NCBI GenBank assembly: GCA_012690745.1
Contig: GCA_012690745.1_4086.2
DNA: 64,000 nt
Strand: one strand, 5' to 3'
Source of the DNA: a phage
Below, piece by piece: positions 7,369 through 60,874 of the stretch. Each line of letters begins with the position of its first letter. Position 1 is the first letter of the stretch. The notes beneath the pieces were generated by a model. That model did not search any database. It was not told the DNA's origin and saw nothing but the letters and a program-made list of their open reading frames with translations. Both the position numbers and the translations under genes were made by a program.

Positions 7369-7851
7369 ATGGCTAATGTAAAATCATTTCTGAAAGCACT
7401 GATTTCTAACGATACTGTTATTGCTGCTGAATTGCTGGCTGACCTGGATAATGATACCATGAAAGCAGTACGCAACAATTTTAACATTGCTTACAGTGAA
7501 GCGAAAGAACTACAAGCCAAAAAGGTAGCAGAACTGGAAGAACAGAAAAAAGCCCGTGAAGCAGAACTGCAAGCAACAATAGAAAGTATTCAGGCGGCGG
7601 TGTCTGGTTTAGATCTGGAAGTGGTTATTGAAATGGCACATAAAGCCCTGGCGGTTAAGTACGGTGAAGATAAGCCGGAATCTAAGCCTAAAAAATGGAT
7701 TCAAGAACGTGTTACTGTTGTCCTTGATAACGGGGAAGAACATTTGATTCCTGTACGCGGTAACTGCATTGCGGTAGTACTGGATGCAATCAAAGAAAGC
7801 GGTATGACTCGCGAGGAATGGATCGAAGCTCACCGCAAAGTTGAAGCATAA
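7369..7851 (+). CDS. hypothetical protein (coiled-coil-rich, 160 aa)
   Basis: Trimmed from track 7354 (TTG) to ATG 7369 with RBS GAGGA. Confidence 0.65.
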   Translation: MANVKSFLKALISNDTVIAAELLADLDNDTMKAVRNNFNIAYSEAKELQAKKVAELEEQKKAREAELQATIESIQAAVSGLDLEVVIEMAHKALAVKYGEDKPESKPKKWIQERVTVVLDNGEEHLIPVRGNCIAVVLDAIKESGMTREEWIEAHRKVEA

Positions 7852-7872
7852 CAATTAAAGTACTGAATCACT

Positions 7873-7900
7873 AGCCCACTGTATAAGTGGGCTTTTTTGT
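7873..7900 (+). terminator. rho-independent terminator
   Basis: Stem agcccac / gtgggct, loop tgtataa, T6 tract. Confidence 0.75.
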
Positions 7901-7907
7901 GTTTATC

Positions 7908-8022
7908 GTTTACCAGGCCACCAGCACCGCCTAGAATCGATTCTAACGCATTAAACTGATTATCTGATGCATCGCCCTAGCTGGTGGCGTTAAGGTCGTT
8001 AGAATGCGATTGAGGACGTTTA
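7908..8022. repeat. Complex palindromic region: arms ccaccagc (7908-7915) / gctggtgg (7970-7977), 14-bp perfect palindrome tagaatcgattcta (7922-7935), and cgttagaatgcg motif (7987-7998)
   Basis: Read directly; cgttagaatgcg also at 2492-2503 and 12043-12054. Confidence 0.6.
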
Positions 8023-8052
8023 AAGTATTTTGCAAAAAGTAATAAAAAGTAC

Positions 8053-8080
8053 TTGCACGATTAAGAGATTAGCGTATAAT
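8053..8080 (+). promoter_or_regulatory. sigma70-like promoter with 5' hairpin
   Basis: -35 TTGCAC 8053-8058, -10 TATAAT 8075-8080. Confidence 0.7.
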
Positions 8081-8135
8081 GTTTTACATCGAGAGGGGGA
8101 AACGGTTCTCCTTCCAAATCAAAGGAATCAAAACA

Positions 8136-8363
8136 ATGGCTATCGTAATCGCTTATGTAACTGGTACTACTGGCACTTCTTCTACTGTTGCTGTAATTAC
8201 CAACAAGAAAGGTGCGGAATTACATTCTGCAATGGATACCTGGGCGGTAAATGAGTTCGGTCAGTGGGCAAGTGTAGCATATGTTGAAACCTATCAAGTG
8301 CCAACCATTAGCTTAACGGATCTCGGTGTAGATCGTATCCTTTGCCTGGATGAATTAAATTAA
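8136..8363 (+). CDS. hypothetical protein
   Basis: Trimmed from track 8079 (ATG in -10) to ATG 8136, RBS AAGGA; starts MAIVIAYV. Confidence 0.6.
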   Translation: MAIVIAYVTGTTGTSSTVAVITNKKGAELHSAMDTWAVNEFGQWASVAYVETYQVPTISLTDLGVDRILCLDELN

Positions 8364-8371
8364 AAAAGTAC

Positions 8372-8399
8372 TTGCAAAGTAAATCAGATAAAGTATAAT
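8372..8399 (+). promoter_or_regulatory. sigma70-like promoter with 5' hairpin (8412-8430)
   Basis: -35 TTGCAA 8372-8377, -10 TATAAT 8394-8399. Confidence 0.7.
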
Positions 8400-8449
8400 A
8401 CATTACATCAAGGGGAGAAATGGTTCTCCCTGATAATGAGGAAACTAAT

Positions 8450-8593
8450 ATGAAAACTTGTCAATGTGGTAAAAAATCTATTACTGGTTTAAAGCGGGGC
8501 GTTGCTCTTTGCCAGTACCATTATAATTTACAAGTATGGGGTAAAGAATGGGCCGACCAGGTGGAAGCAGCAAAGAAAGCAAAAAGTAAGTAA
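8450..8593 (+). CDS. hypothetical small Cys-rich protein (47 aa, possible zinc ribbon; not in ORF track)
   Basis: ATG 8450 after RBS GAGGAA; CQCG...CQYH spacing. Confidence 0.45.
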   Translation: MKTCQCGKKSITGLKRGVALCQYHYNLQVWGKEWADQVEAAKKAKSK

Positions 8594-8612
8594 AATTATT
8601 ATCACAGTACTA

Positions 8613-8641
8613 TTGACATAGATTGATAGTACTGGCATAAT
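8613..8641 (+). promoter_or_regulatory. sigma70-like promoter (TTGACA-N17-CATAAT class)
   Basis: -35 TTGACA 8613-8618, -10 CATAAT 8636-8641; same architecture at 11472, 11751, 12274, 19570. Confidence 0.65.
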
Positions 8642-8674
8642 AGATTTTATCAAGACAACTAAGAGGAAATTAAA

Positions 8675-9019
8675 ATGGCTAATATCAACACTATCGCAAA
8701 ACAAAATATCAACCTGTCTTCTGTTGAAGTTGTACATATTGCCGCTCGGCGTTGGTTCCAGGCTTCATATGGTAACACTTATTTCTCTTTAAGTGTAGAC
8801 GTAGAAATTGATGGTAATTTTATTGAAGTAGTAAACGTGCCGTTCCAATATGGATACGGGGATCACTTTGACACTGTAGCAATGGAAGAATTTAGCAAGG
8901 TTATTAATATGGAAGATAAAGAGTTTTTACGCGGTTCTTATCTTTCCCGTTTTTGCCGTGACAATAATATCACTGTTTACAGTTCGGTAACTGATGTTAA
9001 ACGCAAAAAAGATCTTTAA
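8675..9019 (+). CDS. hypothetical protein (paralog of 15589..15912)
   Basis: Track ORF; RBS AGAGGAA; shares GNTY...YGYG...DVKRKKD with 15589..15912. Confidence 0.6.
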   Translation: MANINTIAKQNINLSSVEVVHIAARRWFQASYGNTYFSLSVDVEIDGNFIEVVNVPFQYGYGDHFDTVAMEEFSKVINMEDKEFLRGSYLSRFCRDNNITVYSSVTDVKRKKDL

Positions 9020-9099
9020 TTAGCTTTACTTTATGCAGATACTTTGATACAGTGTCTGCATAGGGGAAAGAAATTAAATCAACTTAAGAGGATAGTAAA

Positions 9100-9369
9100 A
9101 TGAAAAATATCAGTACTTTAATCGATGCAGGTACACATGTTCGTCGGTCTATGGTTGCAACCAGTTCTACAAAACAAGTACCAAGCGGTTATCTTGTATT
9201 TGTGCACGATGGAAAACTCCTGGAACGTTCAATCAATTTTGATGTTAAAAACAATTGCCGTTTTATTATCTTTAAGCGTGAACAATATAAAATTGATTTG
9301 CCAGCGAAGCCCATTAGCGGGGCGTACAGCGTACAATCATTGTTTGAGCGTCAACCTTACACCTATTAA
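9100..9369 (+). CDS. hypothetical protein
   Basis: Track ORF; RBS AAGAGGA. Confidence 0.55.
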   Translation: MKNISTLIDAGTHVRRSMVATSSTKQVPSGYLVFVHDGKLLERSINFDVKNNCRFIIFKREQYKIDLPAKPISGAYSVQSLFERQPYTY

Positions 9370-9420
9370 TCAAAACATCGTTAGCGGTCGATTTAGGCCG
9401 CTTATATTGGGGATTATACC

Positions 9421-9693
9421 ATGAACGTTAATCAAGTACTGAATGAGATCGAAAGCATCATTAAACCGATGAAGCGTACTGATGCTATGTTAACACCGGA
9501 AGAATGCCGCCTTTATGAGCGTTACAGCGTCGAACAAGTCCAGGCAATGGCTATGGCTACCCCAGCCGTTTCACCGCCTGAGAATGCGTTACAGGACGTT
9601 ACAGGGGATTATATCATTAATCCAGTACTAGGGAAGATGACTGCAATCACCGAAGATCAAAAAGACTACTTAAGCCAGTACTTAAAAGGTTAA
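9421..9693 (+). CDS. hypothetical protein
   Basis: Track ORF; contains 20-bp segment identical to intergenic 12047-12066. Confidence 0.55.
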   Translation: MNVNQVLNEIESIIKPMKRTDAMLTPEECRLYERYSVEQVQAMAMATPAVSPPENALQDVTGDYIINPVLGKMTAITEDQKDYLSQYLKG

Positions 9694-9698
9694 TTAAT

Positions 9699-9908
9699 AT
9701 GCTTACTGTACAGGATAAGATCGACATCTTAAAGGTTAATATGTATGTGATTGATGCCGTACCTGGTAAAGTATTTGCATACGATGACACCACTGTAAGC
9801 AATTTCTACTATAGCCAGGACGTGGGGGATCTTTCTGTACAGTCGGTTATTGAAAATGTAGTTAATGCAGCGTATGAGCATTTACTTTCAAATAGTACTT
9901 GCAATTAG
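9699..9908 (+). CDS. hypothetical protein
   Basis: Track ORF; 3' end overlaps the next promoter -35. Confidence 0.5.
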   Translation: MLTVQDKIDILKVNMYVIDAVPGKVFAYDDTTVSNFYYSQDVGDLSVQSVIENVVNAAYEHLLSNSTCN

Positions 9909-9926
9909 TTTTTAAACGCGTATAAT
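9899..9926 (+). promoter_or_regulatory. sigma70-like promoter with 5' hairpin (9939-9958)
   Basis: -35 TTGCAA 9899-9904, -10 TATAAT 9921-9926. Confidence 0.7.
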
Positions 9927-9977
9927 GTTTTACATGAAGGGGAGAAATGATTCTCCCCACTAATTAAGGAATATGAA

Positions 9978-10124
9978 ATGAAAGCATCAAAAAAGAGTAA
10001 TACTAAGAAAGCATGTTCACCTTTCGCTGGGGTATTCCCTTTACGTTTCGTTGATGAAGTGGTTTCCTACCCGCCGGGCCTTACTCCTGAGATGGTAGAA
10101 AGTTTGCGTAAATCTAAAAAATAA
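9978..10124 (+). CDS. hypothetical small basic protein (48 aa; not in ORF track)
   Basis: ATG 9978 after RBS AAGGAA; stop TAA 10122-10124. Confidence 0.45.
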   Translation: MKASKKSNTKKACSPFAGVFPLRFVDEVVSYPPGLTPEMVESLRKSKK

Positions 10125-10127
10125 TAC

Positions 10128-10155
10128 TTGCAATTAGTTTTTAGTACTGTATAAT
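10128..10155 (+). promoter_or_regulatory. sigma70-like promoter with 5' hairpin
   Basis: -35 TTGCAA 10128-10133, -10 TATAAT 10150-10155. Confidence 0.7.
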
Positions 10156-10205
10156 TGTTTACATAGAGGGGGAAATGGTTCTCCCCTGATACAAGGAGAA
10201 TCAAA

Positions 10206-10358
10206 ATGAAACAATATAATGCTCGGTTTGATGTTACTATCGGTAACGGCAAAGGTCAATTTTCTTTCAGTACTCGACGCAGTTATACAGAAAACTTCCT
10301 GCGTAATTGTGCACTGACCGCCGCTCAAATTAAACATTATTTTCAGGCTAAAAAATGA
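10206..10358 (+). CDS. hypothetical small protein (50 aa; not in ORF track)
   Basis: ATG 10206 after RBS AAGGAGAA; stop overlaps next start (ATGA). Confidence 0.45.
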   Translation: MKQYNARFDVTIGNGKGQFSFSTRRSYTENFLRNCALTAAQIKHYFQAKK

Positions 10359-10444
10359 AATCATTAGCTTATTACAGTTCGGCCCTGGTCGGTGCATTGA
10401 TCGCGGCGTTGTTAGTAACCTATCTATTCTTTATGGTGATTTAA
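10355..10444 (+). CDS. hypothetical small hydrophobic peptide (29 aa)
   Basis: ATGA-coupled to upstream ORF; sequence MKSLAYYSSALVGALIAALLVTYLFFMVI is one hydrophobic helix. Confidence 0.35.
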   Translation: MKSLAYYSSALVGALIAALLVTYLFFMVI

Positions 10445-10582
10445 ATGAATCCTAACGGTATAATTTACAGTACTCCTAAAACGAAAGCAGATAAAGCGAA
10501 AGCACGTAAAGCGAAAGTAAAGGAGTACATCAAGCAAGGCATGACGCGAAAGGCGGCGATTCTGAAAGCTAAAAATAAATGA
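10445..10582 (+). CDS. hypothetical small lysine-rich protein (45 aa)
   Basis: ATG 10445 one nt after upstream stop; highly basic. Confidence 0.4.
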   Translation: MNPNGIIYSTPKTKADKAKARKAKVKEYIKQGMTRKAAILKAKNK

Positions 10583-10587
10583 AAAAG

Positions 10588-10674
10588 TGGTTGACTTCGG
10601 TCAGCCATTTTGCTATTATATATTCATTGAGAGATAGCTCACTAGCCCACAGGGTGCAGGAGTGTATCTATTGT
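10588..10674 (+). promoter_or_regulatory. Repeated intergenic module copy 1: terminator-like hairpin with embedded TTGACT-N17-TATTAT promoter, then cccacagggtgc element
   Basis: Hairpin tggttgac-ttcg-gtcagcca + TTTT (10588-10611); -35 10591-10596, -10 10614-10619; element 10644-10674. Confidence 0.55.
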
Positions 10675-10723
10675 ATAATGATTGAGTACAGAAAACTATT
10701 TTAAAGTATTTGATAAAAAGTAC

Positions 10724-10751
10724 TTGCATACTATCTCAATAGGCGTATAAT
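10724..10751 (+). promoter_or_regulatory. sigma70-like promoter with 5' hairpin
   Basis: -35 TTGCAT 10724-10729, -10 TATAAT 10746-10751. Confidence 0.7.
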
Positions 10752-10802
10752 GTTTTACATCGCAAGGGGAAACGGTTTCCCCTGGTAATAAGGAAACGAA
10801 TC

Positions 10803-11144
10803 ATGACTATTGCAATTGCTCAATCTAACTTTGAAAACGAAATCATCGCTCAGGCACTGCGTTTAAATGATGGTCGGGCCGAAATCAATTACGGTTTCAA
10901 TAGTGGTGGATGTGAAAAATATCAGTACTTTGTAACGGCTGATGGCTGTGTCCTGGGTATCAATACAGTTATTGTAAACATTCAGAAAATTAATTTCAAT
11001 GATCCAGACGATAGCCAGTTTTACATCACGGGCGTAGACGTGAACTATGAGGATGACTCACTAACTGATGATCACACTGGCGAGAAGTTAGAAAGTGCAT
11101 ACGGTGAAGATGATTATCAGTCCGGTCCAGAAGATTTCGAATAA
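10803..11144 (+). CDS. hypothetical acidic protein
   Basis: Track ORF; RBS AAGGAA. Confidence 0.6.
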   Translation: MTIAIAQSNFENEIIAQALRLNDGRAEINYGFNSGGCEKYQYFVTADGCVLGINTVIVNIQKINFNDPDDSQFYITGVDVNYEDDSLTDDHTGEKLESAYGEDDYQSGPEDFE

Positions 11145-11158
11145 TATTAAAAAATAGT

Positions 11159-11186
11159 TTGACAATAGTTTTTAGTACTGTATAAT
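11159..11186 (+). promoter_or_regulatory. sigma70-like promoter with 5' hairpin
   Basis: -35 TTGACA 11159-11164, -10 TATAAT 11181-11186. Confidence 0.75.
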
Positions 11187-11239
11187 AGTTTACATCAAGG
11201 GGAGAATAGTTCTCCCCACTAACAGAGAGAGAAAACAAA

Positions 11240-11452
11240 ATGGCTAATATCCGCACTGTACTGAAAAATGCAAAACAAGTTTTATTTTCTGATCATGAAA
11301 ATTTCAACAAGGATATCACTGGCGTTCGGAATATCAAAGATGTAAAAAATGTTATGGGTATCTATTGCAATATGAAACGTGTTGGCACGTTCGGCGATAA
11401 AGTACTATACCAGGCAGGGGATTACAATTTTACACTGACTATCATTAACTAA
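11240..11452 (+). CDS. hypothetical protein
   Basis: Track ORF; RBS GAGAGAGA. Confidence 0.55.
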   Translation: MANIRTVLKNAKQVLFSDHENFNKDITGVRNIKDVKNVMGIYCNMKRVGTFGDKVLYQAGDYNFTLTIIN

Positions 11453-11471
11453 AAATATTATCACAGTACTA

Positions 11472-11500
11472 TTGACAACGTTTGATAGTACTGGCATAAT
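11472..11500 (+). promoter_or_regulatory. sigma70-like promoter (TTGACA-N17-CATAAT class)
   Basis: -35 TTGACA 11472-11477, -10 CATAAT 11495-11500. Confidence 0.65.
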
Positions 11501-11543
11501 AACTTTTATCAAGACAACGCATATTAATTTAAGGAATACTAAA

Positions 11544-11723
11544 ATGGCTATTATCGCAAAAACTGAAATCATCGGCCTGGATTCTATCATCATGACGTTT
11601 GAAGATCAAAAAGGGATGTATGTAGTTTCCTATGGTGATTATGTTCGGGAGTATGAAACAGTAGACGAAGCCTTTGAAAGTTACATTCGCCAGGTTAATA
11701 AAGCATACGACGATTACCGCTAA
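11544..11723 (+). CDS. hypothetical protein
   Basis: Trimmed from track 11472 (TTG of the -35) to ATG 11544 with RBS AAGGAA. Confidence 0.5.
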   Translation: MAIIAKTEIIGLDSIIMTFEDQKGMYVVSYGDYVREYETVDEAFESYIRQVNKAYDDYR

Positions 11724-11750
11724 AATATATTACCAGTACTATTAAATCTA

Positions 11751-11778
11751 TTGACAATGTTTGATAGTACTGTATAAT
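11751..11778 (+). promoter_or_regulatory. sigma70-like promoter
   Basis: -35 TTGACA 11751-11756, -10 TATAAT 11773-11778. Confidence 0.7.
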
Positions 11779-11822
11779 AACTTTTATCAACAGTAGTTAA
11801 CTTAACCTAAGAGAGAAAAATC

Positions 11823-11966
11823 ATGACAGCATTAGATTCATTCATCGACGCAGTACTGGCAAAAACTGGCGAGGATCTGACCGCAGAACAATACGCGATG
11901 ATCGAGCAATGCCAGCAAAACGGTAAATCGGTGAAAGATACTGTTAAGATTATCCGCAAGATGTAA
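11823..11966 (+). CDS. hypothetical small protein (47 aa; not in ORF track)
   Basis: ATG 11823 after RBS AGAGAGA; stop TAA 11964-11966. Confidence 0.45.
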   Translation: MTALDSFIDAVLAKTGEDLTAEQYAMIEQCQQNGKSVKDTVKIIRKM

Positions 11967-11972
11967 GATTAT

Positions 11973-12001
11973 AGCCCACTGGTTAACGCTGGTGGGCTTT
12001 A
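11973..12001 (+). terminator. terminator-like hairpin
   Basis: Stem agcccac / gtgggct with 12-nt loop; short T run. Confidence 0.4.
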
Positions 12002-12071
12002 ATCATTTACCCTATACAATGCCAGTACTAAACCGTTTAACTCGTTAGAATGCGTTACAGGACGTTTAACA

Positions 12072-12269
12072 ATGATTAGCATGAAATCAGTACAAAAACA
12101 AATAGAAACATTATCAAAAATTAAACGTAAACAGTACTCCTTAGAATATACAATCAATGGTAACTATCATCTAATGAAAGAAAATAATTTTATAGTCATT
12201 GATGAATCATTGCAGATCATTAGTATAGTACTGAAAGCATTAATCAATGACAGAAAAAAGTTAAAATAA
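12072..12269 (+). CDS. hypothetical protein
   Basis: Track ORF; no strong RBS. Confidence 0.4.
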   Translation: MISMKSVQKQIETLSKIKRKQYSLEYTINGNYHLMKENNFIVIDESLQIISIVLKALINDRKKLK

Positions 12270-12273
12270 TCTA

Positions 12274-12360
12274 TTGACAAATTATGCCAGTACTGGCATA
12301 ATACTTACATCAAGACGAGAACGTCACTAACCCATAGGGTGCACAAATGTAACTATATAA
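12274..12360 (+). promoter_or_regulatory. Promoter (TTGACA-N17-CATAAT) followed by cccatagggtgc element (module variant)
   Basis: -35 12274-12279, -10 12297-12302; element 12327-12360. Confidence 0.55.
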
Positions 12361-12440
12361 TATCGATCAATAAATGATCAAAAAAGTACTGGATCAATTT
12401 AGCATAAGGCGTATAATTCTGATCAAATCTTGATCAAAGG
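12355..12440. repeat. GATC cluster: five GATCAA repeats within ~80 bp in a 250-bp ORF-free region
   Basis: cgatcaataaatgatcaaaaaagtactggatcaa ... ctgatcaaatcttgatcaaagg. Confidence 0.6.
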
Positions 12441-12598
12441 CAATAAACGTAGTTGAAATTATATAGAAAGTACAAAGGCGTTACCATTCGTGGTAATGCT
12501 GGGGAATATGTAGTATCATACGGTTTGAATAAAATCAGTACTAGTAGTATTATTGTAGCATTACAGTACTATAGTATTTTTATAATGAGGTTAAAATA

Positions 12599-12856
12599 AT
12601 GGCTGTTGGATTCGCGAAGGACGGGGCCGAGCAAGACGAGATTAACGCAGTGATTCAGGCCGCTGTAAACCACGCTAGAACGCAAATTAACGCACAAATA
12701 GAATCACTGATACATTGCCTCGACTGCGGCGATAAAATCCCTGAGAATCGCCGCCTGGCCGTTAAGGGGTGTAAGTACTGCATCACTTGCCAGGCTGATC
12801 ATGATAGCATATTCAAACGCAATCCCCGTAATTGTTGGCATAGATCTATGAGATAA
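12599..12856 (+). CDS. DksA/TraR-family C4-type zinc-finger protein
   Basis: CLDCG-DKIPENRRLAVKG-CKYCITCQ matches the four-Cys TraR/DksA finger; RBS GAGG. Confidence 0.7.
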   Translation: MAVGFAKDGAEQDEINAVIQAAVNHARTQINAQIESLIHCLDCGDKIPENRRLAVKGCKYCITCQADHDSIFKRNPRNCWHRSMR

Positions 12857-12862
12857 AAAGTA

Positions 12863-12890
12863 TTGACAGTGCTGTTAGTTAGTGTATAAT
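12863..12890 (+). promoter_or_regulatory. sigma70-like promoter
   Basis: -35 TTGACA 12863-12868, -10 TATAAT 12885-12890. Confidence 0.75.
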
Positions 12891-12919
12891 ATTTTATATC
12901 TTAACTGAGGATTGAAATC

Positions 12920-13276
12920 ATGGGTATACAACATATCACGCGTACTACAGACAATGGTGAGATCACTGGCTATCAAGTACAAGGCAAAGTAGCACAATTG
13001 CAGTACTGGTTTGTTAAACGTGGCATTGTTGCACCGGATCTTGATTATGATCGTGTAGCGTTTATTGATTCTCTTTATGTTGATCCCGATAATCGCGGTA
13101 ACGGTGAAGGTACTGAATTAATGAATGCCTTTATTGATGCCGCCGATGATTCAGATTGTATCATCTTAGAATGCGATACGGGAGAAGATAACGAGTTTAA
13201 TCTTAAAGAATGGTATGAAAGTTTTGGTTTTGAAGTACTGATTAACTGTGAATATCCTATAATGATTTTATCCTAG
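12920..13276 (+). CDS. putative GNAT-family N-acetyltransferase
   Basis: SLYVDPDNRGNGEGTELMNAF resembles GNAT motif A; RBS GAGGA. Confidence 0.5.
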   Translation: MGIQHITRTTDNGEITGYQVQGKVAQLQYWFVKRGIVAPDLDYDRVAFIDSLYVDPDNRGNGEGTELMNAFIDAADDSDCIILECDTGEDNEFNLKEWYESFGFEVLINCEYPIMILS

Positions 13277-13279
13277 TAC

Positions 13280-13307
13280 TTGCATTTAGTTTTAAGTACT
13301 GTATAAT
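13280..13307 (+). promoter_or_regulatory. sigma70-like promoter with 5' hairpin (13320-13338)
   Basis: -35 TTGCAT 13280-13285, -10 TATAAT 13302-13307. Confidence 0.7.
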
Positions 13308-13355
13308 AGTTTACATGAAGGGGAGAATAGTTCTCCCCACTACAAGGAAAGACAA

Positions 13356-13544
13356 ATGCAAAACTTATCAAGTATTTTAGTACAAGATGATTTTGGTAAT
13401 CCTGGAAGTGCTATCATCGTTCGGGGCAATAAGGCAACGTTTGTTATTGCTGGTGGACCTGTACAGCGTAGCATTAAAAACAATGCAGTTACAATCAATA
13501 ATGTTCGCTATCGCTTAGATAAAGAATTGATTCATAAACTGTAA
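13356..13544 (+). CDS. hypothetical protein
   Basis: Track ORF; RBS AAGGAAAGA. Confidence 0.5.
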   Translation: MQNLSSILVQDDFGNPGSAIIVRGNKATFVIAGGPVQRSIKNNAVTINNVRYRLDKELIHKL

Positions 13545-13571
13545 TATTAATTTAATAGAGGATAAAAATAA

Positions 13572-13895
13572 ATGTATATTCATACTACTATCACAAAAGA
13601 AGTTCGTTGTCAATTCGAAAGTATCCCTGGTGTATGTTTCATTACAGGCACTTTCTCACCTGGTGACCGTGATAATCCAGTACTGTTACAGTTACGCCAT
13701 CCATTATGGGATAAAGCATTTGATCTGCCGTTGAATGAATTCGCAACCACTGCTGATAAGTACATTAAAAATATTCGCGAGAATGATTGCCTATTCATTA
13801 ATGCTTTTAGTGATGCCGCGTTAAGTGAGATCCATGCTGTATTGGTTGCAATCATGGAATCAATGGAGAAAACTAAATTCAAACAAGGTGAATAA
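13572..13895 (+). CDS. hypothetical protein
   Basis: Track ORF; RBS AGAGGA. Confidence 0.55.
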   Translation: MYIHTTITKEVRCQFESIPGVCFITGTFSPGDRDNPVLLQLRHPLWDKAFDLPLNEFATTADKYIKNIRENDCLFINAFSDAALSEIHAVLVAIMESMEKTKFKQGE

Positions 13896-13901
13896 AAACT
13901 A

Positions 13902-13929
13902 TTGACAATGTAATCTAGTACTGTATAAT
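13902..13929 (+). promoter_or_regulatory. sigma70-like promoter with 5' hairpin (13942-13961)
   Basis: -35 TTGACA 13902-13907, -10 TATAAT 13924-13929. Confidence 0.75.
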
Positions 13930-13978
13930 AGTTTACATGAAGGGGAGAAATGATTCTCCCCACTAAGAGGAAAGAAAC

Positions 13979-14191
13979 ATGCAAGGTCAACTAATCGTTC
14001 GTAAATGGTCTGATACTAACGAAAAACCGTGGGATGTTCAATATATCGGACCGGACGGTGTTTCACGTTATCAACCTGGCGTAACGCATAGTACTGAGCA
14101 ATATGCCGCCGCTCACCGTGAACGCCTGTTAGAATCTATGAAACAGGGATTCTGTGAAAAATTCATTCAAGATCATTGGCTGAAAGATTAA
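13979..14191 (+). CDS. hypothetical protein
   Basis: Track ORF; RBS AAGAGGAAA. Confidence 0.55.
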   Translation: MQGQLIVRKWSDTNEKPWDVQYIGPDGVSRYQPGVTHSTEQYAAAHRERLLESMKQGFCEKFIQDHWLKD

Positions 14192-14208
14192 TAGAAGGAG
14201 TACAGCTT

Positions 14209-14301
14209 ATGCAAATGAATCCGATGATTGTTGTGTTAGCTGTACTTATGATCATTCATGCCATCGTAGAAGTACTAACACAATCAGGAGTAATACAATG
14301 A
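14209..14301 (+). CDS. hypothetical small hydrophobic peptide (30 aa)
   Basis: ATG 14209 after RBS AAGGAG; MQMNPMIVVLAVLMIIHAIVEVL; stop overlaps next ATG. Confidence 0.35.
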   Translation: MQMNPMIVVLAVLMIIHAIVEVLTQSGVIQ

Positions 14302-14468
14302 TCCAAGTAGAATTATCAGTACTGAAAGATCTGTTTTATCGGTTAGGCACTACTGGCGAATACCCTAAAGGGGATACTGCTAAACTATACATTGCATTGG
14401 ATGTATGGCAACGTAATGAACTGGCTAACGCCTGGCGTAAAGGTAAATCAGAGGGGATTGCAGCATGA
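14298..14468 (+). CDS. hypothetical small protein (56 aa)
   Basis: ATGA-coupled to neighbours. Confidence 0.4.
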   Translation: MIQVELSVLKDLFYRLGTTGEYPKGDTAKLYIALDVWQRNELANAWRKGKSEGIAA

Positions 14469-14614
14469 AAGAATTCTTATTCGAAGTAGTGTTCCAGGGC
14501 GTAGGAAGTAACCAACTGATTCGATCAAGTGGTTACAATGTTAACCAGGCATGGAATAACATTAAACAAATGTACCCGAACGCTATCACATATCGCAACC
14601 CAAAACAAGTTTAA
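14465..14614 (+). CDS. hypothetical small protein (49 aa)
   Basis: ATGA-coupled; stop TAA 14612-14614. Confidence 0.4.
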   Translation: MKEFLFEVVFQGVGSNQLIRSSGYNVNQAWNNIKQMYPNAITYRNPKQV

Positions 14615-14628
14615 AAAGATTTAAAAAA

Positions 14629-14713
14629 GGGATTGACTCCGGTCAGTCCCTTTGCTATTATATATGCATAGAAACAATCTAACCCACAGGGTGCATAAAT
14701 GTATCTATTATAT
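14629..14713 (+). promoter_or_regulatory. Repeated intergenic module copy 2
   Basis: Hairpin gggattgac-tccg-gtcagtccc + TTTG; -35 TTGACT 14633-14638, -10 TATTAT 14656-14661; element 14679-14713. Confidence 0.55.
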
Positions 14714-14761
14714 GCTGGTGGCTAGTACTATCAAGTACTGAAAACTATTTTTAAAAAGTAC

Positions 14762-14789
14762 TTGCATTGTACTTAGAATCAAGTATAAT
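14762..14789 (+). promoter_or_regulatory. sigma70-like promoter driving conserved leader / candidate small RNA (14797-14875)
   Basis: -35 TTGCAT 14762-14767, -10 TATAAT 14784-14789. Confidence 0.65.
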
Positions 14790-14796
14790 GTTTTAC

Positions 14797-14875
14797 ATCA
14801 GGACGGGGAACGAAATAAGTAACCCCGTTAAGTAGTCCAGGAGTAAGACATACGAAAACCTCCCCTGATAAAATA
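14797..14875 (+). ncRNA. candidate small RNA / structured leader (copy 2)
   Basis: Near-identical to 4395-4475 with a few substitutions; again followed by a second promoter. Confidence 0.35.
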
Positions 14876-14877
14876 GT

Positions 14878-14905
14878 TTGACAATAGAAATTAAACGAGT
14901 ATAAT
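14878..14905 (+). promoter_or_regulatory. sigma70-like promoter
   Basis: -35 TTGACA 14878-14883, -10 TATAAT 14900-14905. Confidence 0.7.
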
Positions 14906-14935
14906 ACTTACATCAACCACAAAGAGGAATACAAA

Positions 14936-15136
14936 ATGAAACATTTTACTTTCGGTGTAGTAGGCTTTACAGTATCCAGCGGCGTTTATAAATCAGAACG
15001 CGGTGCTAAAAATGCAGCAAGTCGGGCGTATGGTTCACAGCGTGACTTACAGGTCGGTTATATTAGTAACATTAATAACATGTTTATTCCTGTTTCACAG
15101 CGTAAAGCGGGTAACATGAAATGGGAAACAATTTGA
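14936..15136 (+). CDS. hypothetical protein
   Basis: Track ORF; RBS AAGAGGAA. Confidence 0.5.
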   Translation: MKHFTFGVVGFTVSSGVYKSERGAKNAASRAYGSQRDLQVGYISNINNMFIPVSQRKAGNMKWETI

Positions 15137-15145
15137 TAAAATAGT

Positions 15146-15173
15146 TTGACAATAGTTTTTAGTACTGTATAAT
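15146..15173 (+). promoter_or_regulatory. sigma70-like promoter with 5' hairpin (15186-15204)
   Basis: -35 TTGACA 15146-15151, -10 TATAAT 15168-15173. Confidence 0.75.
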
Positions 15174-15225
15174 ATTTTACATCAAGTGGGGAATAGTTCC
15201 CCACCTAACAAAGAGAGAAATTAAA

Positions 15226-15501
15226 ATGCGGATTCTACTGACAGCTAACGAAATCGAGCAAGTACTGACTACTAACCTGGAAGACTGGAAACGTGATGCA
15301 GATATCCAGGCGGTGCAATGGCTCAATGATAAGTTAACGCCGGATGATTTAAGTAAGATTGTAGATCCACAATTCTATGAAGATATTCACGACACGGCTT
15401 TAAGCGTCGAGGATGTACTTGATAAGCACTACATTGATACTGATTTACATGTTTACGGTCGTAAAAACTTTATCACTATTCACGACATTTACAATACTTA
15501 A
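15226..15501 (+). CDS. hypothetical protein
   Basis: Track ORF; RBS AAGAGAGA. Confidence 0.55.
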   Translation: MRILLTANEIEQVLTTNLEDWKRDADIQAVQWLNDKLTPDDLSKIVDPQFYEDIHDTALSVEDVLDKHYIDTDLHVYGRKNFITIHDIYNT

Positions 15502-15504
15502 GTA

Positions 15505-15532
15505 TTGACAAAGTATCTTAGTACTGTATAAT
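15505..15532 (+). promoter_or_regulatory. sigma70-like promoter with 5' hairpin
   Basis: -35 TTGACA 15505-15510, -10 TATAAT 15527-15532. Confidence 0.75.
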
Positions 15533-15588
15533 AGTTTACATCAAGTGAGGGGAATGGTTCCCTTCCTAACAAAAAGAGAGAAATTAAA

Positions 15589-58795: not shown

Positions 58796-59650
58796 ATGAA
58801 ACTTTATCTAATCGTTGACTACAATAAGGATTATGCTGGTAACTTCACCGAAGATTCGGATGGATATTGCACATCGACTAATGTCAATGTACGTAGCAGT
58901 AGTGCTCATGAACATGAATCTTGTAAAAATCTAAAAGATTTTATCGCATACCGAGCATTTGAAAAGAACTTCTGCCGCAGTAGATATTCGAAGTTTGAGT
59001 ACCCGTTAATTGATGTTCCTGATGATTTAATGTTCCAGTTAATGTTGACTGGAGTTCAAGATTATGATTACATAGCGTATAATCATATTACTAAGAAAAT
59101 TTATATTGGTACATCATCACATGACACTTCTATGTATGCATCATGCCCAGATGATCGAATGAATGATAGAAAATCATACTATAGTGGGTCAGTTGGTTTA
59201 AATGATTCATTAAATAAAAATTCATTCTTTGAGTATGTTTATGATTACCATCATGAGAAAAAAGAACGTGAAGATTACTGTATAGCAATTGATAGTACTA
59301 ATGGTTATGAAGACGTGAAAGAAGCACTTATGCCGTACATTATTGAAAAGTACTACAAAGATTTTCAGTACTGTAGTAATTTTCTAATCAGAAATTCTAT
59401 TATAATCGGTCGCCAATCTAGTGCATACTCTCAGTACTACAACGATTCACCAGTAGCATCGGCAAATGAAATGTGTGATATTTTACAAATTCCACGTGAA
59501 GATATGACATTTATTTTTACGTCTTTTATTGAAGATGATGAGTTGTATATTAAAAATAAACATCGTTTCATGCCAAGCAGGATTGAGGTTATTCGAAGTT
59601 TTAGTGTTGATATACTAACAAATTTCACAGAAAAAACCGAATATAACTGA
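58796..59650 (+). CDS. hypothetical protein (284 aa)
   Basis: Trimmed from track 58763 to ATG 58796 (RBS GGAG); weak family-like PDDLMFQLMLTGV. Confidence 0.55.
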   Translation: MKLYLIVDYNKDYAGNFTEDSDGYCTSTNVNVRSSSAHEHESCKNLKDFIAYRAFEKNFCRSRYSKFEYPLIDVPDDLMFQLMLTGVQDYDYIAYNHITKKIYIGTSSHDTSMYASCPDDRMNDRKSYYSGSVGLNDSLNKNSFFEYVYDYHHEKKEREDYCIAIDSTNGYEDVKEALMPYIIEKYYKDFQYCSNFLIRNSIIIGRQSSAYSQYYNDSPVASANEMCDILQIPREDMTFIFTSFIEDDELYIKNKHRFMPSRIEVIRSFSVDILTNFTEKTEYN

Positions 59651-59679
59651 GACAAATGATAAGTTAATGATATAATATA

Positions 59680-59714
59680 AGGTGACAACATAATATGTTA
59701 GTCACCTTTTTTTA
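59680..59714 (+). terminator. rho-independent terminator
   Basis: Long stem aggtgacaacat / atgttagtcacct, 3-nt loop, T7 tract. Confidence 0.8.
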
Positions 59715-60250
59715 ATCCTGAAAGGTTCCCATAAGGAAATGATTAAAAGCCTAATCCACTCGAAAATGTAGAGGGTAGATGAGTAGTCCTTTCAGTACGA
59801 ACAGCAGATGAAACCCGTTAGATGATGGCATAGTTTGAACCACTCACGGCAATGCGGCTGTATAAAGAACTCCAATAGGATAAAGAGAGTTCCTCGATAG
59901 ACATATAAGGATCGCACCTTACCAATTATCTAAGGGAGATTTCATAAGAAATATGCGGTCGGAATTATACAATATAGTTGCGTCCAAATTTTGTGAAATC
60001 AAATACAAGTACTGGTCATATGGTATTTGTATTATGTGTCGGGATGTTTAAGACCGACGACCGTTGCTACAAGAACCGCGATAGAGAGAAACAGAGCAAC
60101 CCGCTTTCGTCTCATAAGAGAATTCGTGATATGAACTATGTGAAGGCCACCAGCGTCAAATTTTTTTGTTCTTTCCCCTGCGGGGGGATGAAATATGCTC
60201 AAGCAAACCCCGTCAATATTAATTAAAAGAAAATAGTACTTGTAGAATTA
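59715..60250 (+). other. ORF-poor, visibly GC-richer 540-bp region; candidate structured noncoding RNA or regulatory region
   Basis: Only one weak ORF (59978..60226) without RBS; local hairpins such as cccctgcgggggg. Confidence 0.3.
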
Positions 60251-60328
60251 GACATGCGTAGCATGATAATTCTACTGATGTTGATGCAATCAACGTCACG
60301 TATATTCATTGATGTTTCCATAGGAATA

Positions 60329-60874
60329 ATGATGGCATTTATTAGAAAAGAAAAAACTGTTACTTATAAAACTTTGAATTTTGATGATTGCATTAATCAA
60401 TCACAAGACGAAGATATCTTTACTGGATATGTGGTTATTAAAGAAAAAGGATGCATTTCTTATATAAAGGAATTACAAAATGGAATTGAAGTGACTTCAG
60501 TTAAATTACTTCCTACTCAAAAACCAACAATATCAAAAGCCCAGTATGGTAATTATTTTGAAGAAAGATATAGTAATAATTCAATAAGTGTTAAGGCTCA
60601 TATTATTAAAGGAGAACTAGAAGGAGAATATAGAAAATACAACCCACAAGGAAAATGTGTTTGGGTTAAATACTTCAATTCAGGATATGATGTAACATCT
60701 GAAATTATAGAATTCTTGGGTTTAAAATGTACCCCTGAGACTATTCATGATTACAAGTTCAATACTGAAGAAGAGTTTAATCTGATGATGCGTTACGGTT
60801 CACATTTTAAATTTTTATATGAATATAACATTGACAGTAGTACTTTTGATAAGATAGTACACAACTGTCTCTAA
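60329..60874 (+). CDS. hypothetical protein with possible MORN/YwqK-like repeats
   Basis: Trimmed from track 60254 to ATG 60329 (RBS AGGAA); GELEGEYRKYNPQGKCVWVKYFNSGYDV resembles MORN-type repeats. Confidence 0.45.
   Translation: MMAFIRKEKTVTYKTLNFDDCINQSQDEDIFTGYVVIKEKGCISYIKELQNGIEVTSVKLLPTQKPTISKAQYGNYFEERYSNNSISVKAHIIKGELEGEYRKYNPQGKCVWVKYFNSGYDVTSEIIEFLGLKCTPETIHDYKFNTEEEFNLMMRYGSHFKFLYEYNIDSSTFDKIVHNCL

Follow-up and report, generated by a model that had tools for sequence, protein, structure and literature searches.

The intergenic unit ahead of gp416

The stretch of DNA analysed here, called the window, comprises 64,000 nucleotides (nt) of phage contig GCA_012690745.1_4086.2 (NCBI GenBank assembly GCA_012690745.1) and is overall of the type of Escherichia phage 121Q, with 99.8-99.9% identity. 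Phages 121Q and phAPEC6 belong to the genus Asteriusvirus, Rak2-like jumbo phages with genomes of about 350 kb. The subject is the gap between the homologues of two 121Q genes, gp415 with its stop codon at 59650 and gp416 with its start codon at 60332, between which the carefully annotated records of 121Q and G17 contain nothing. The 751 bases around this gap are 99.9% identical to 121Q and phAPEC6, window position 59715 corresponding to position 192809 of 121Q. Judged from the comparison of homologous sequences, the gap very probably contains the body of a gene for a large and intricately folded non-coding RNA of the + strand.

In the original prediction positions 59715-60250 had been singled out as a GC-richer region without a credible open reading frame (ORF), situated between two zones of terminators and promoters and more likely to encode a structured RNA or a regulatory hub than to be empty. 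The first two of these statements hold. The GC content of the region is 39.6%, and 40.7% in 59716-60160, compared to 27-34% in the flanking windows of 200 nt, and the region is the GC peak of the last 42 kb or so. As the first 21 kb are richer, it reaches only the 89th percentile of the whole window; it is distinct locally but not extreme globally. Positions 1-21300 are markedly GC-richer than the remainder (up to 45.7% in windows of 536 nt), and a run of paralogous ORFs of about 60 amino acids (121Q genes 253-264) leads into this first third. The sole sizeable ORF in the gap, 59978..60226, would yield 82 amino acids from a TTG start and is not conserved, the equivalent frame being stopped at 52 codons or fewer in 56 of 58 homologues. 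The aligned homologues vary in length by non-multiples of three, and their longest ORFs differ in strand and place, which is not what a protein-coding gene would give. Small ORFs labelled 'hypothetical protein' are annotated inside the RNA loci, for example gene 516 of 121Q (247799-247954, - strand), and the records of SHEFM2K, E9.1, JP4 and WPEC3/5 carry such ORFs over the window region, four to six of them in some records. As no frame is conserved, these annotations are probably spurious.

The conserved unit is larger than the 59715-60250 region originally marked out. It extends from about 59647 to 60300, fills nearly the whole gap and corresponds to a predicted + strand RNA of about 620 nt. 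It is laid out as a predicted promoter of its own, a 5' hairpin with a run of U, a core of about 440 nt, and a 3' module made up of a G-rich hairpin, a CGUCA motif that is repeated, and two additional hairpins. The individual features are the following, with helices given as 5' strand/3' strand.

59648..59676, + strand: predicted promoter TGAGAC-N17-TGnTATAAT, with 10 of 12 matches and the TG in a consensus scan
59648-59653, + strand: -35-like TGAGAC, overlapping the gp415 stop codon
59668-59669, + strand: TG of the extended -10 element
59671-59676, + strand: -10 box TATAAT, spacer 17 nt
59679..59713, + strand: 5' hairpin (59679-59708) and U7, folding free energy (dG) -13.9 kcal/mol, z -5.5, annotated as terminator in the G17 record
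59716..60157, + strand: predicted RNA core, about 440 nt, helices P1-P13, at least 17 helices and three pseudoknots
59718-25/59788-95, + strand: P1
59726-29/59735-38, + strand: P2, judged by eye only
59751-61/59771-78, + strand: P3
59783-85/59796-98, + strand: Px, pseudoknot
59801-05/59857-61, + strand: P4
59815-28/59840-49, + strand: P5
59867-72/59887-92, + strand: P6
59906-10/59917-21, + strand: P6'
59938-44/59994-60000, + strand: P7
59945..59993, + strand: variable insert at the P7 tip, holding the conserved module UACAAUAUAGnUnCGUCCAAAUUU
60003-14/60021-32, + strand: P8
60015-20/60130-35, + strand: PK2, pseudoknot
60038-42/60054-58, + strand: P9a
60063-67/60096-100, + strand: P9, pseudoknot
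60077-81/60124-28, + strand: P10
60084-88/60104-08, + strand: P11
60110-13/60118-21, + strand: P12
60142-46/60153-57, + strand: P13, weak in the window copy
60161..60167, + strand: U7 run at the internal-terminator position, located by alignments, the terminator hairpin missing in the window copy
60169..60192, + strand: P14, G-rich hairpin UUCUUUCCCC-UGC-GGGGGGAUGAA, dG -12.7, 82.7% of cells paired
60204..60216, + strand: motif 2, CAAACCCCGUCAA, near-repeat of the P13 3' strand ACCAGCGUCAA (60148-60158)
60242..60275, + strand: P15 hairpin (60242-50/60267-75), GTAGAATTA / TAATTCTAC with loop GACATGCGTAGCATGA, judged by eye
60281-60293, + strand: P16 hairpin TTGAT-GCA-ATCAA (60281-85/60289-93)
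60294-60299, + strand: third CGUCA motif
60332..60874, + strand: gp416 homologue of 180 amino acids without a Pfam match, outside the RNA and starting about 30 nt past the conserved unit

The promoter consensus TGrrAC, a spacer of 17-18 nt and TATA[AC]T was found in 56 of 59 non-redundant homologues, the spacer being 17 nt in 46 copies and 18 nt in 10, and the TG of the extended -10 element in 54 of the 59. This promoter class, with -35 'TGAAACG' and -10 'TATA', has been reported for phages CBB and GAP32, with 18 copies in CBB which mostly precede DNA-synthesis genes (PMC5259590). The terminator placed at 59680-59714 in the original prediction exists as a hairpin with U7; its position as an outer boundary proved wrong, as it is a part of the unit, located between the -10 box and the RNA body. 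The same arrangement is seen in the orthologous locus A copies and in the E-type copies of other genera. This hairpin probably ends the transcripts of gp415, and it may form the 5' end of the RNA or act as its attenuator.

The promoter zone expected downstream turned out to be a series of further conserved hairpins reaching towards the AUG of gp416 (60332). In this part AATTCTTTGACA was first taken for a piece of an early sigma-70 promoter, of which it would supply the -35 box and UP element; this was rejected, as no usable -10 box lies at 16-18 nt, the covarying P16 stem follows right after and, in E-type copies, the AUG of the next ORF is only about 17 nt downstream. These sites may be included among the 'RpoD-like promoters with UP element' of the CBB paper (PMC5259590).

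Comparative evidence for a folded RNA

Pattern scans of IMG/VR, metagenomes and GTDB genomes followed by profile searches yielded 92 near-full-length copies, from which 59 with less than 97% mutual identity were taken for alignment A2. Helices were derived from column-pair scans, and one explicit structure of 108 pairs in 20 helices was tested on A2. Controls were 500 shuffles and structures with the 3' partners slid by 1-3 columns.

Cells forming a standard pair: observed 89.1%; shuffles 73.1 +/- 0.3%; slid 39-43%
Pairs changed on both sides: observed 73 of 108; shuffles 61; slid 35-42
Doubly changed cells: observed 901; shuffles 246 +/- 15; slid 109-136
Covariation score: observed 0.407; shuffles 0.146; slid 0.07-0.09

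Not one of the 500 shuffles reached any of the observed measures. Compensatory pairs thus exceed what column composition and relatedness account for, and at the sequence level the unit has promoter and terminator signals of its own, as expected of a structured non-coding RNA. The helices Px, P4, P9, P10 and P11 are 100% paired and PK2 is 99.4% paired, their positions each showing two to four types of Watson-Crick pair; column pair 438/600 of PK2, for example, is AU in 23 copies, UA in 14, CG in 11 and GC in 8. The stem after the conserved UAUAAAG reads GAACUC/GAGUUC, AAGUAC/GUACUU or GAGCGU/ACGCUU in different copies. As Px, PK2 and P9 cross other helices, the core contains three predicted pseudoknots: Px encloses the 3' strand of P1, in PK2 the loop of P8 pairs with a segment 110 nt downstream, and P9 crosses P10 and P11. 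RNAalifold, which was not given the tested structure, recovered 11 helices (P1, P4, P5a, P6, P6', PK2, P9a, P10, P11, P12 and P14). Within the structure 413 G-U cells stand against 193 A-C cells, which points to the + strand as the RNA. Many unpaired nucleotides of the core are invariant. The predicted fold is under strong selection, and with a conserved promoter, four to five paralogues per genome, about 20 covarying helices, three pseudoknots and no conserved ORF the original preference for a structured RNA over empty DNA is borne out.

Directly after the core an intrinsic terminator hairpin with a U-run is present in most other copies; in copy B of 121Q this is AGAGACUUCAUUGUCUCUUUUUUAUU with a dG of -7.9 and a z of -2.6. 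The G-rich hairpin cccctgcgggggg, which had been noticed before near 60173-60186, is indeed there at 60169-60192, and in the 121Q genome it is confined to the four copies of the RNA element. Hairpins of the CCCCTGCGGGGGG type likewise occur in 121Q only at the four RNA loci, with a conserved G6 run on the 3' side. Variation in P14 consists mainly of U-G in place of C-G, a pair permitted only if the + strand is the RNA, and P14 is therefore an RNA structure rather than a DNA palindrome. Of 37 homologues sharing the anchor sequence, 35 form a perfect 5-bp stem at P16, and at least four different stems occur, CAUUC/GAAUG, CAUAC/GUAUG, CAAUC/GAUUG and CUAAC/GUUAG. At the position of P15 the homologues keep a hairpin with differing stem sequences and, by eye, a related loop ACGAACGWAGUGAGU. 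A second P15/P16-like module (…GACGATAATTCTTTGACATTCGAAGAATGGTAAAT…) was seen on the - strand at L023:8821, about 400 nt past the RNA copy L023:9299-9846 and devoid of an RNA core; the 3' module can therefore exist alone in front of a gene.

The unit has three motifs containing CGUCA (60148-60158, 60204-60216 and 60294-60299), and across homologues the first two change as direct repeats, for which simple hairpin covariation is no explanation. Motif 2 and the P13 3' strand mutate in parallel, from CGUC to UGUC in copies L098, L122 and L137 and from CGUC to CGAC in L080. A recognition site common to both, or an alternative pairing in which the 5' strand of P13 takes part, might be the reason. 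Motif 2 could also pair over a long distance with GCGG/ACGG (59846-59857) or the GAC of GAUAGAC (59900-59902); the alignment is compatible with this and shows no compensatory changes. Depending on the paralogue, the module UACAAUAUAGnUnCGUCCAAAUUU forms part of the P7 tip, the P12 tip or both. At these tips UACAAUAUAGnUnCGUCCAAAAUU, a module of about 25 nt, behaves like a structural cassette capable of transposition (examples are L006:2900-2950 and, at the P12 tip, L053).

Scanning of the whole 64-kb window with Rfam 15, proposed earlier as a check, gave no match to a known family at gathering score. At E <= 10 the region 59600-60350 yielded only five weak chance matches to models of snoRNAs and sRNAs, all over the 5' hairpin, and at E <= 0.1 a copy from an E. 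coli chromosomal island (see below) yielded none. The models included ROOL, GOLLD, OLE, raiA, HEARO, RNase P, transfer-messenger RNA (tmRNA), group I and II introns, 6S, riboswitches and small ribozymes. ARAGORN found no transfer RNA (tRNA) or tmRNA genes in the window. Full-text searches of the published literature, including phage-genome papers, found no description of this RNA. Resemblances noted by eye were dropped as the covariance-model scans did not support them, namely RNase P CR-IV/V-like 'ACAGAGCAACCCGCUUUCG', hammerhead-like 'CAGAUGAG', group I R/S-like 'GAUAGACAUAUA' and Shine-Dalgarno-like 'UAAGGGAG'. By these comparisons the predicted RNA is of a previously undescribed family, of the kind of the large ornate RNAs and a member of no described one.

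Copies in phages and bacterial chromosomes

Searching phage genomes with the intergenic stretch by blastn gave 284 places in 71 records, all of them Rak2-like phages of Escherichia, Klebsiella, Salmonella, Erwinia, Yersinia, Serratia, Cronobacter, Pectobacterium and 'Xanthomonas'. Identity falls to 66-76% over about 480 nt. Four copies per genome occur in Asteriusvirus and five in the other genera. The window contains no second copy (blastn with word size 7, nhmmer). A search of nearly the whole 121Q genome gave three more, which are 70-85% identical and lie in annotation gaps; the RNA copies occupy some of the widest gaps of the 121Q gene tables.

90332-90783 of 121Q, + strand: further copy
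247513-248041 of 121Q, + strand: further copy
326676-327149 of 121Q, + strand: further copy

Sequence clustering and comparison of neighbouring genes showed that the paralogues are at fixed, syntenic positions across genera; they split before the phage genera diverged. Locus A, to which the window copy belongs, is always ahead of the gp416 homologue and a Dam methyltransferase. At locus B, represented by copy B of 121Q and its relatives, the RNA is always positioned between endonuclease VII and baseplate-hub genes, both on the opposite strand. The unit is complete there, P15 and P16 included, and in every genus examined it ends at a bidirectional terminator and has no ORF. This terminator (A8-CCAGC-loop-GCUGG-U-rich) is found in other genera about 190 nt past motif 2 (L017:1850-1900, L037, L014, L021); it also serves the baseplate-hub operon, which converges on it, and gives the predicted end of RNA B in its long form. 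Copy D of 121Q represents the E type, and two more types, D10 and C12, have a context of their own each. At four of the five loci (A, C12, D10 and E) a co-oriented ORF begins 15-60 nt after P16, and no credible promoter was recognised between P16 and this ORF; in E-type copies the AUG comes directly after GGCAA. Genes downstream of the RNA copies include the Dam methyltransferase and an ADP-ribosylglycohydrolase. Locus A holds two RNA types, C11, which is close to C12, in CBB (L045) and contig 3300042256_13 (L052), and A13 in GAP32 (L031) and Yersinia phage fHe-Yen9-04 (L029). This suggests occasional exchange or gene conversion between paralogues.

Single copies in bacterial chromosomes sit at the edge of rare integrated elements of enterobacteria. 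Among 5,426 complete E. coli genomes two, LR-29-1 and EEC_W5, contain a complete copy with promoter, core, terminator, P14, motif 2, P15 and P16. In LR-29-1 (NZ_AP027515.1, about 3478976-3479515; L150:11890-12545) it is part of an island of about 10 kb beside ffs, together with a tyrosine integrase split by IS3, a serine recombinase and candidate defence genes found by PADLOC (PDC-M45A/C, PDC-S16). The sequence on either side of this RNA, for about 430 nt upstream and 700 nt downstream, is unannotated and rich in GTAC and contains repeats of the ATCGATCG type. In Serratia sp. 2723 (L080:3257-5914) a full copy is located by housekeeping genes, 370 nt downstream of a large serine recombinase of 568 amino acids. 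A 5'-truncated copy in Serratia sp. L9 (L079:3513-4445) abuts a 200-amino-acid N-terminal fragment of a serine recombinase (resolvase), which looks like an internal deletion of the recombinase-RNA pair that is intact in Serratia sp. 2723. A further copy was found in an Enterobacteriaceae metagenome-assembled genome (MAG, CAUSEC010000004.1; L073:5848-7830), flanked by the chromosomal thiM/thiD genes on one side and by a CI-like S24 repressor on the other. Another promoter, TTGAAACG-N17-TATACT, is seen there 560 nt upstream, ahead of a small ORF, so that this promoter class is used by the integrated element as well. The flanks of the Serratia and MAG copies had no protein similarity to 121Q, the only feature which the proteins of the E. 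coli island share with 121Q is a DUF4326 domain, and plasmids gave no match to the RNA.

Proposed function and comparison with known RNAs

The function favoured here, though with less confidence than the existence of the RNA, is that of a stand-alone RNA which would act through its three-dimensional fold, either by scaffolding a protein partner or by catalysing a reaction or binding a ligand. Its synthesis would depend on the firing of promoters of the TGAAAC class. In most copies transcripts stopped at the intrinsic terminator past the core would give a short form, and read-through a long form containing the 3' module; in the window copy, which lacks the terminator hairpin, the long form should dominate. 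A stand-alone RNA is favoured because neither locus B nor the E. coli island copy, complete as both units are, has a gene to regulate; the position of the locus B RNA between opposite-strand genes, with its end at a bidirectional terminator, makes it an independent unit. The density of invariant unpaired nucleotides and pseudoknots resembles that of catalytic RNAs or of the cores of ribonucleoproteins (RNPs), as expected of an RNA which depends on its fold.

Several observations weigh against this interpretation. The folding energy of the single sequence is unremarkable (z = -1.5 on the + strand and -0.6 on the - strand), and the case for a structured RNA therefore rests on covariation and not on thermodynamics. 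For all Rak2-like phages the promoter, the RNA ends and the abundance are deduced from the DNA. The 5' hairpin and U7 of the window copy should stop many of the transcripts coming from the unit's own promoter. Five ancient paralogues at fixed positions fit a role in cis at least equally well. The spacing of the downstream ORF at four of the five loci, with no recognisable promoter between, points in the same direction, and an intrinsic terminator between core and ORF also fits a cis-acting role.

A giant cis-acting leader, meaning either a sensor resembling a riboswitch, T-box or attenuator, or an antiterminator of the processive kind, is thus to be considered, and is regarded as possible if somewhat doubtful. 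Its core would sense a signal or modify RNA polymerase and gate the passage through the internal terminator, or its 3' hairpins would gate translation of the downstream ORF. Known attenuation leaders (riboswitches, T-box) and antiterminator RNAs (HK022 put, EAR) likewise have a promoter, a structured RNA, a terminator and a co-oriented ORF in this order, as is the case at most loci here, and they likewise occur in several copies per genome ahead of different genes, the usual pattern of a cis-regulator. The presence of the Dam methyltransferase and the ADP-ribosylglycohydrolase among the downstream genes would suit such a role, too. Unlike in these systems, the core is 2-6 times larger, it has no Rfam match, and a regulated gene is not found downstream of every copy: locus B, complete as it is, is followed by convergent genes only, and about 700 nt without an annotated gene follow the E. 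coli island copy. At 440 nt, the sensor would have about double the length of the largest riboswitch aptamers known. Terminator stems differ wholly between the paralogue types, and inspection of the alignments, with no systematic search made, disclosed no conserved alternative pairing of terminator and antiterminator, with the possible exception of the E type, the only one in which the terminator stem GUCAG/CUGAC reuses the P13 3' strand. A stand-alone and a leader function are compatible, as the short form ending at the terminator could work in trans and read-through could supply the genes next to it. It is unlikely, by comparison, that the transcript serves a replication origin as primer or R-loop RNA in the manner of ColE1 RNA II or T4 oriF/oriG, with the G-run hairpin and the downstream DNA marking the start of synthesis. 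Those RNAs share with the present one a length of about 500 nt, a dedicated promoter, a G-run (here G6) toward the 3' side and several dispersed loci in a T4-related genome; the four to five position-fixed copies per genome are similar in number to the several T4 origins, and copies in integrated elements could exploit the replication of a helper phage. The promoter class is tied to replication genes, as it stands mostly before DNA-synthesis genes in CBB (PMC5259590). The tolerance of P14 for U-G wobbles on the + strand only speaks for RNA structure rather than a DNA site, however, the intrinsic terminator usually precedes the G-run, unlike in ColE1 RNA II and the T4 origin RNAs, and there is no GC-skew inflection at the locus. 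The fold is elaborate with its three covarying pseudoknots, and origin or primer transcripts are not known to need conserved pseudoknots.

Two further explanations fare worse. A remnant or active mobile element, such as an intron-like or insertion sequence-associated RNA spread to several sites, would account for the multiple copies, for the serine or tyrosine recombinases beside the chromosomal ones, for the near-repeats of the CGUCA motif flanking the 3' module, and for A13 and C11 types at one locus as a sign of exchange between copies. It is very improbable, as synteny across genera is at odds with recent transposition, no gene is interrupted, each copy has its own promoter, and Rfam models of group I/II introns or ribozymes gave no match. 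That the region holds no more than clustered signals acting at the DNA level, such as terminator, promoter and operator sites, or else a short protein gene missed by annotation, is hardly credible at all: promoter- and terminator-like sites do flank it and some GenBank records list four to six small hypothetical proteins, but compensatory changes over about 100 pairs, some of them 110 nt apart, go beyond protein-binding DNA sites, and no ORF is conserved.

Large RNAs with multiple pseudoknots are rare, and those with a known role are nearly all fundamental, i.e. the ribosome, RNase P, introns, tmRNA and riboswitches. A bolder and rather doubtful proposal is that the core of about 440 nt constitutes a new functional class of RNA, either a giant sensor or leader which gates adjacent genes upon a cellular or defence signal, or a large ribozyme or RNP core which jumbo phages and rival integrated elements alike would use in the conflict of phage and host. 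In the sensor version the gated Dam methylase, the ADP-ribosylglycohydrolase and the genes without assigned function could be counter-defence genes; in the ribozyme or RNP version the copies in the E. coli defence island and beside the Serratia recombinases would be captured or competing versions. If the RNA controls its neighbours or takes part in phage-host or phage-satellite conflict, this would be a new mechanism of jumbo phages. The system is tractable due to the cultivable E. coli phages 121Q, phAPEC6, G17 and PBECO4, and the four to five diverged isostructural copies offer a rich covariation set and natural variants with or without internal terminator and downstream gene. Annotation of Rak2-like genomes should change, as wide gaps of 121Q would become RNA genes and small ORFs in several GenBank records would be recognised as spurious.

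Non-coding RNAs of the + strand have been described in PA5oct, a jumbo phage related to 121Q and Rak2, in which four such transcripts of 240-620 nt (ncRNA001-004) were defined by RNA sequencing, two of them being very abundant throughout infection (PMC7318152). The family profile found no homology to ncRNA001/002 in PA5oct 7800-23000 (nhmmer --max, best E = 0.88). The closest parallels are the ornate RNAs ROOL, GOLLD, OLE and raiA, a standing puzzle which the new RNA joins as another unexplained large RNA. It differs from them in that neither sequence nor structure matches by Rfam cmscan, in its four to five syntenic paralogues per genome, in the occurrence so far only in Rak2-like jumbo phages and a few enterobacterial integrated elements, in the conserved 3' module past an internal terminator, and in that no tRNA genes adjoin it in the window. 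Like these RNAs (PMC12286853, PMC5737381), it has several hundred nt, many helices and pseudoknots and invariant unpaired nucleotides, and forms a GC-rich island in AT-rich intergenic DNA; ROOL and GOLLD, too, are often borne by phages or prophages.

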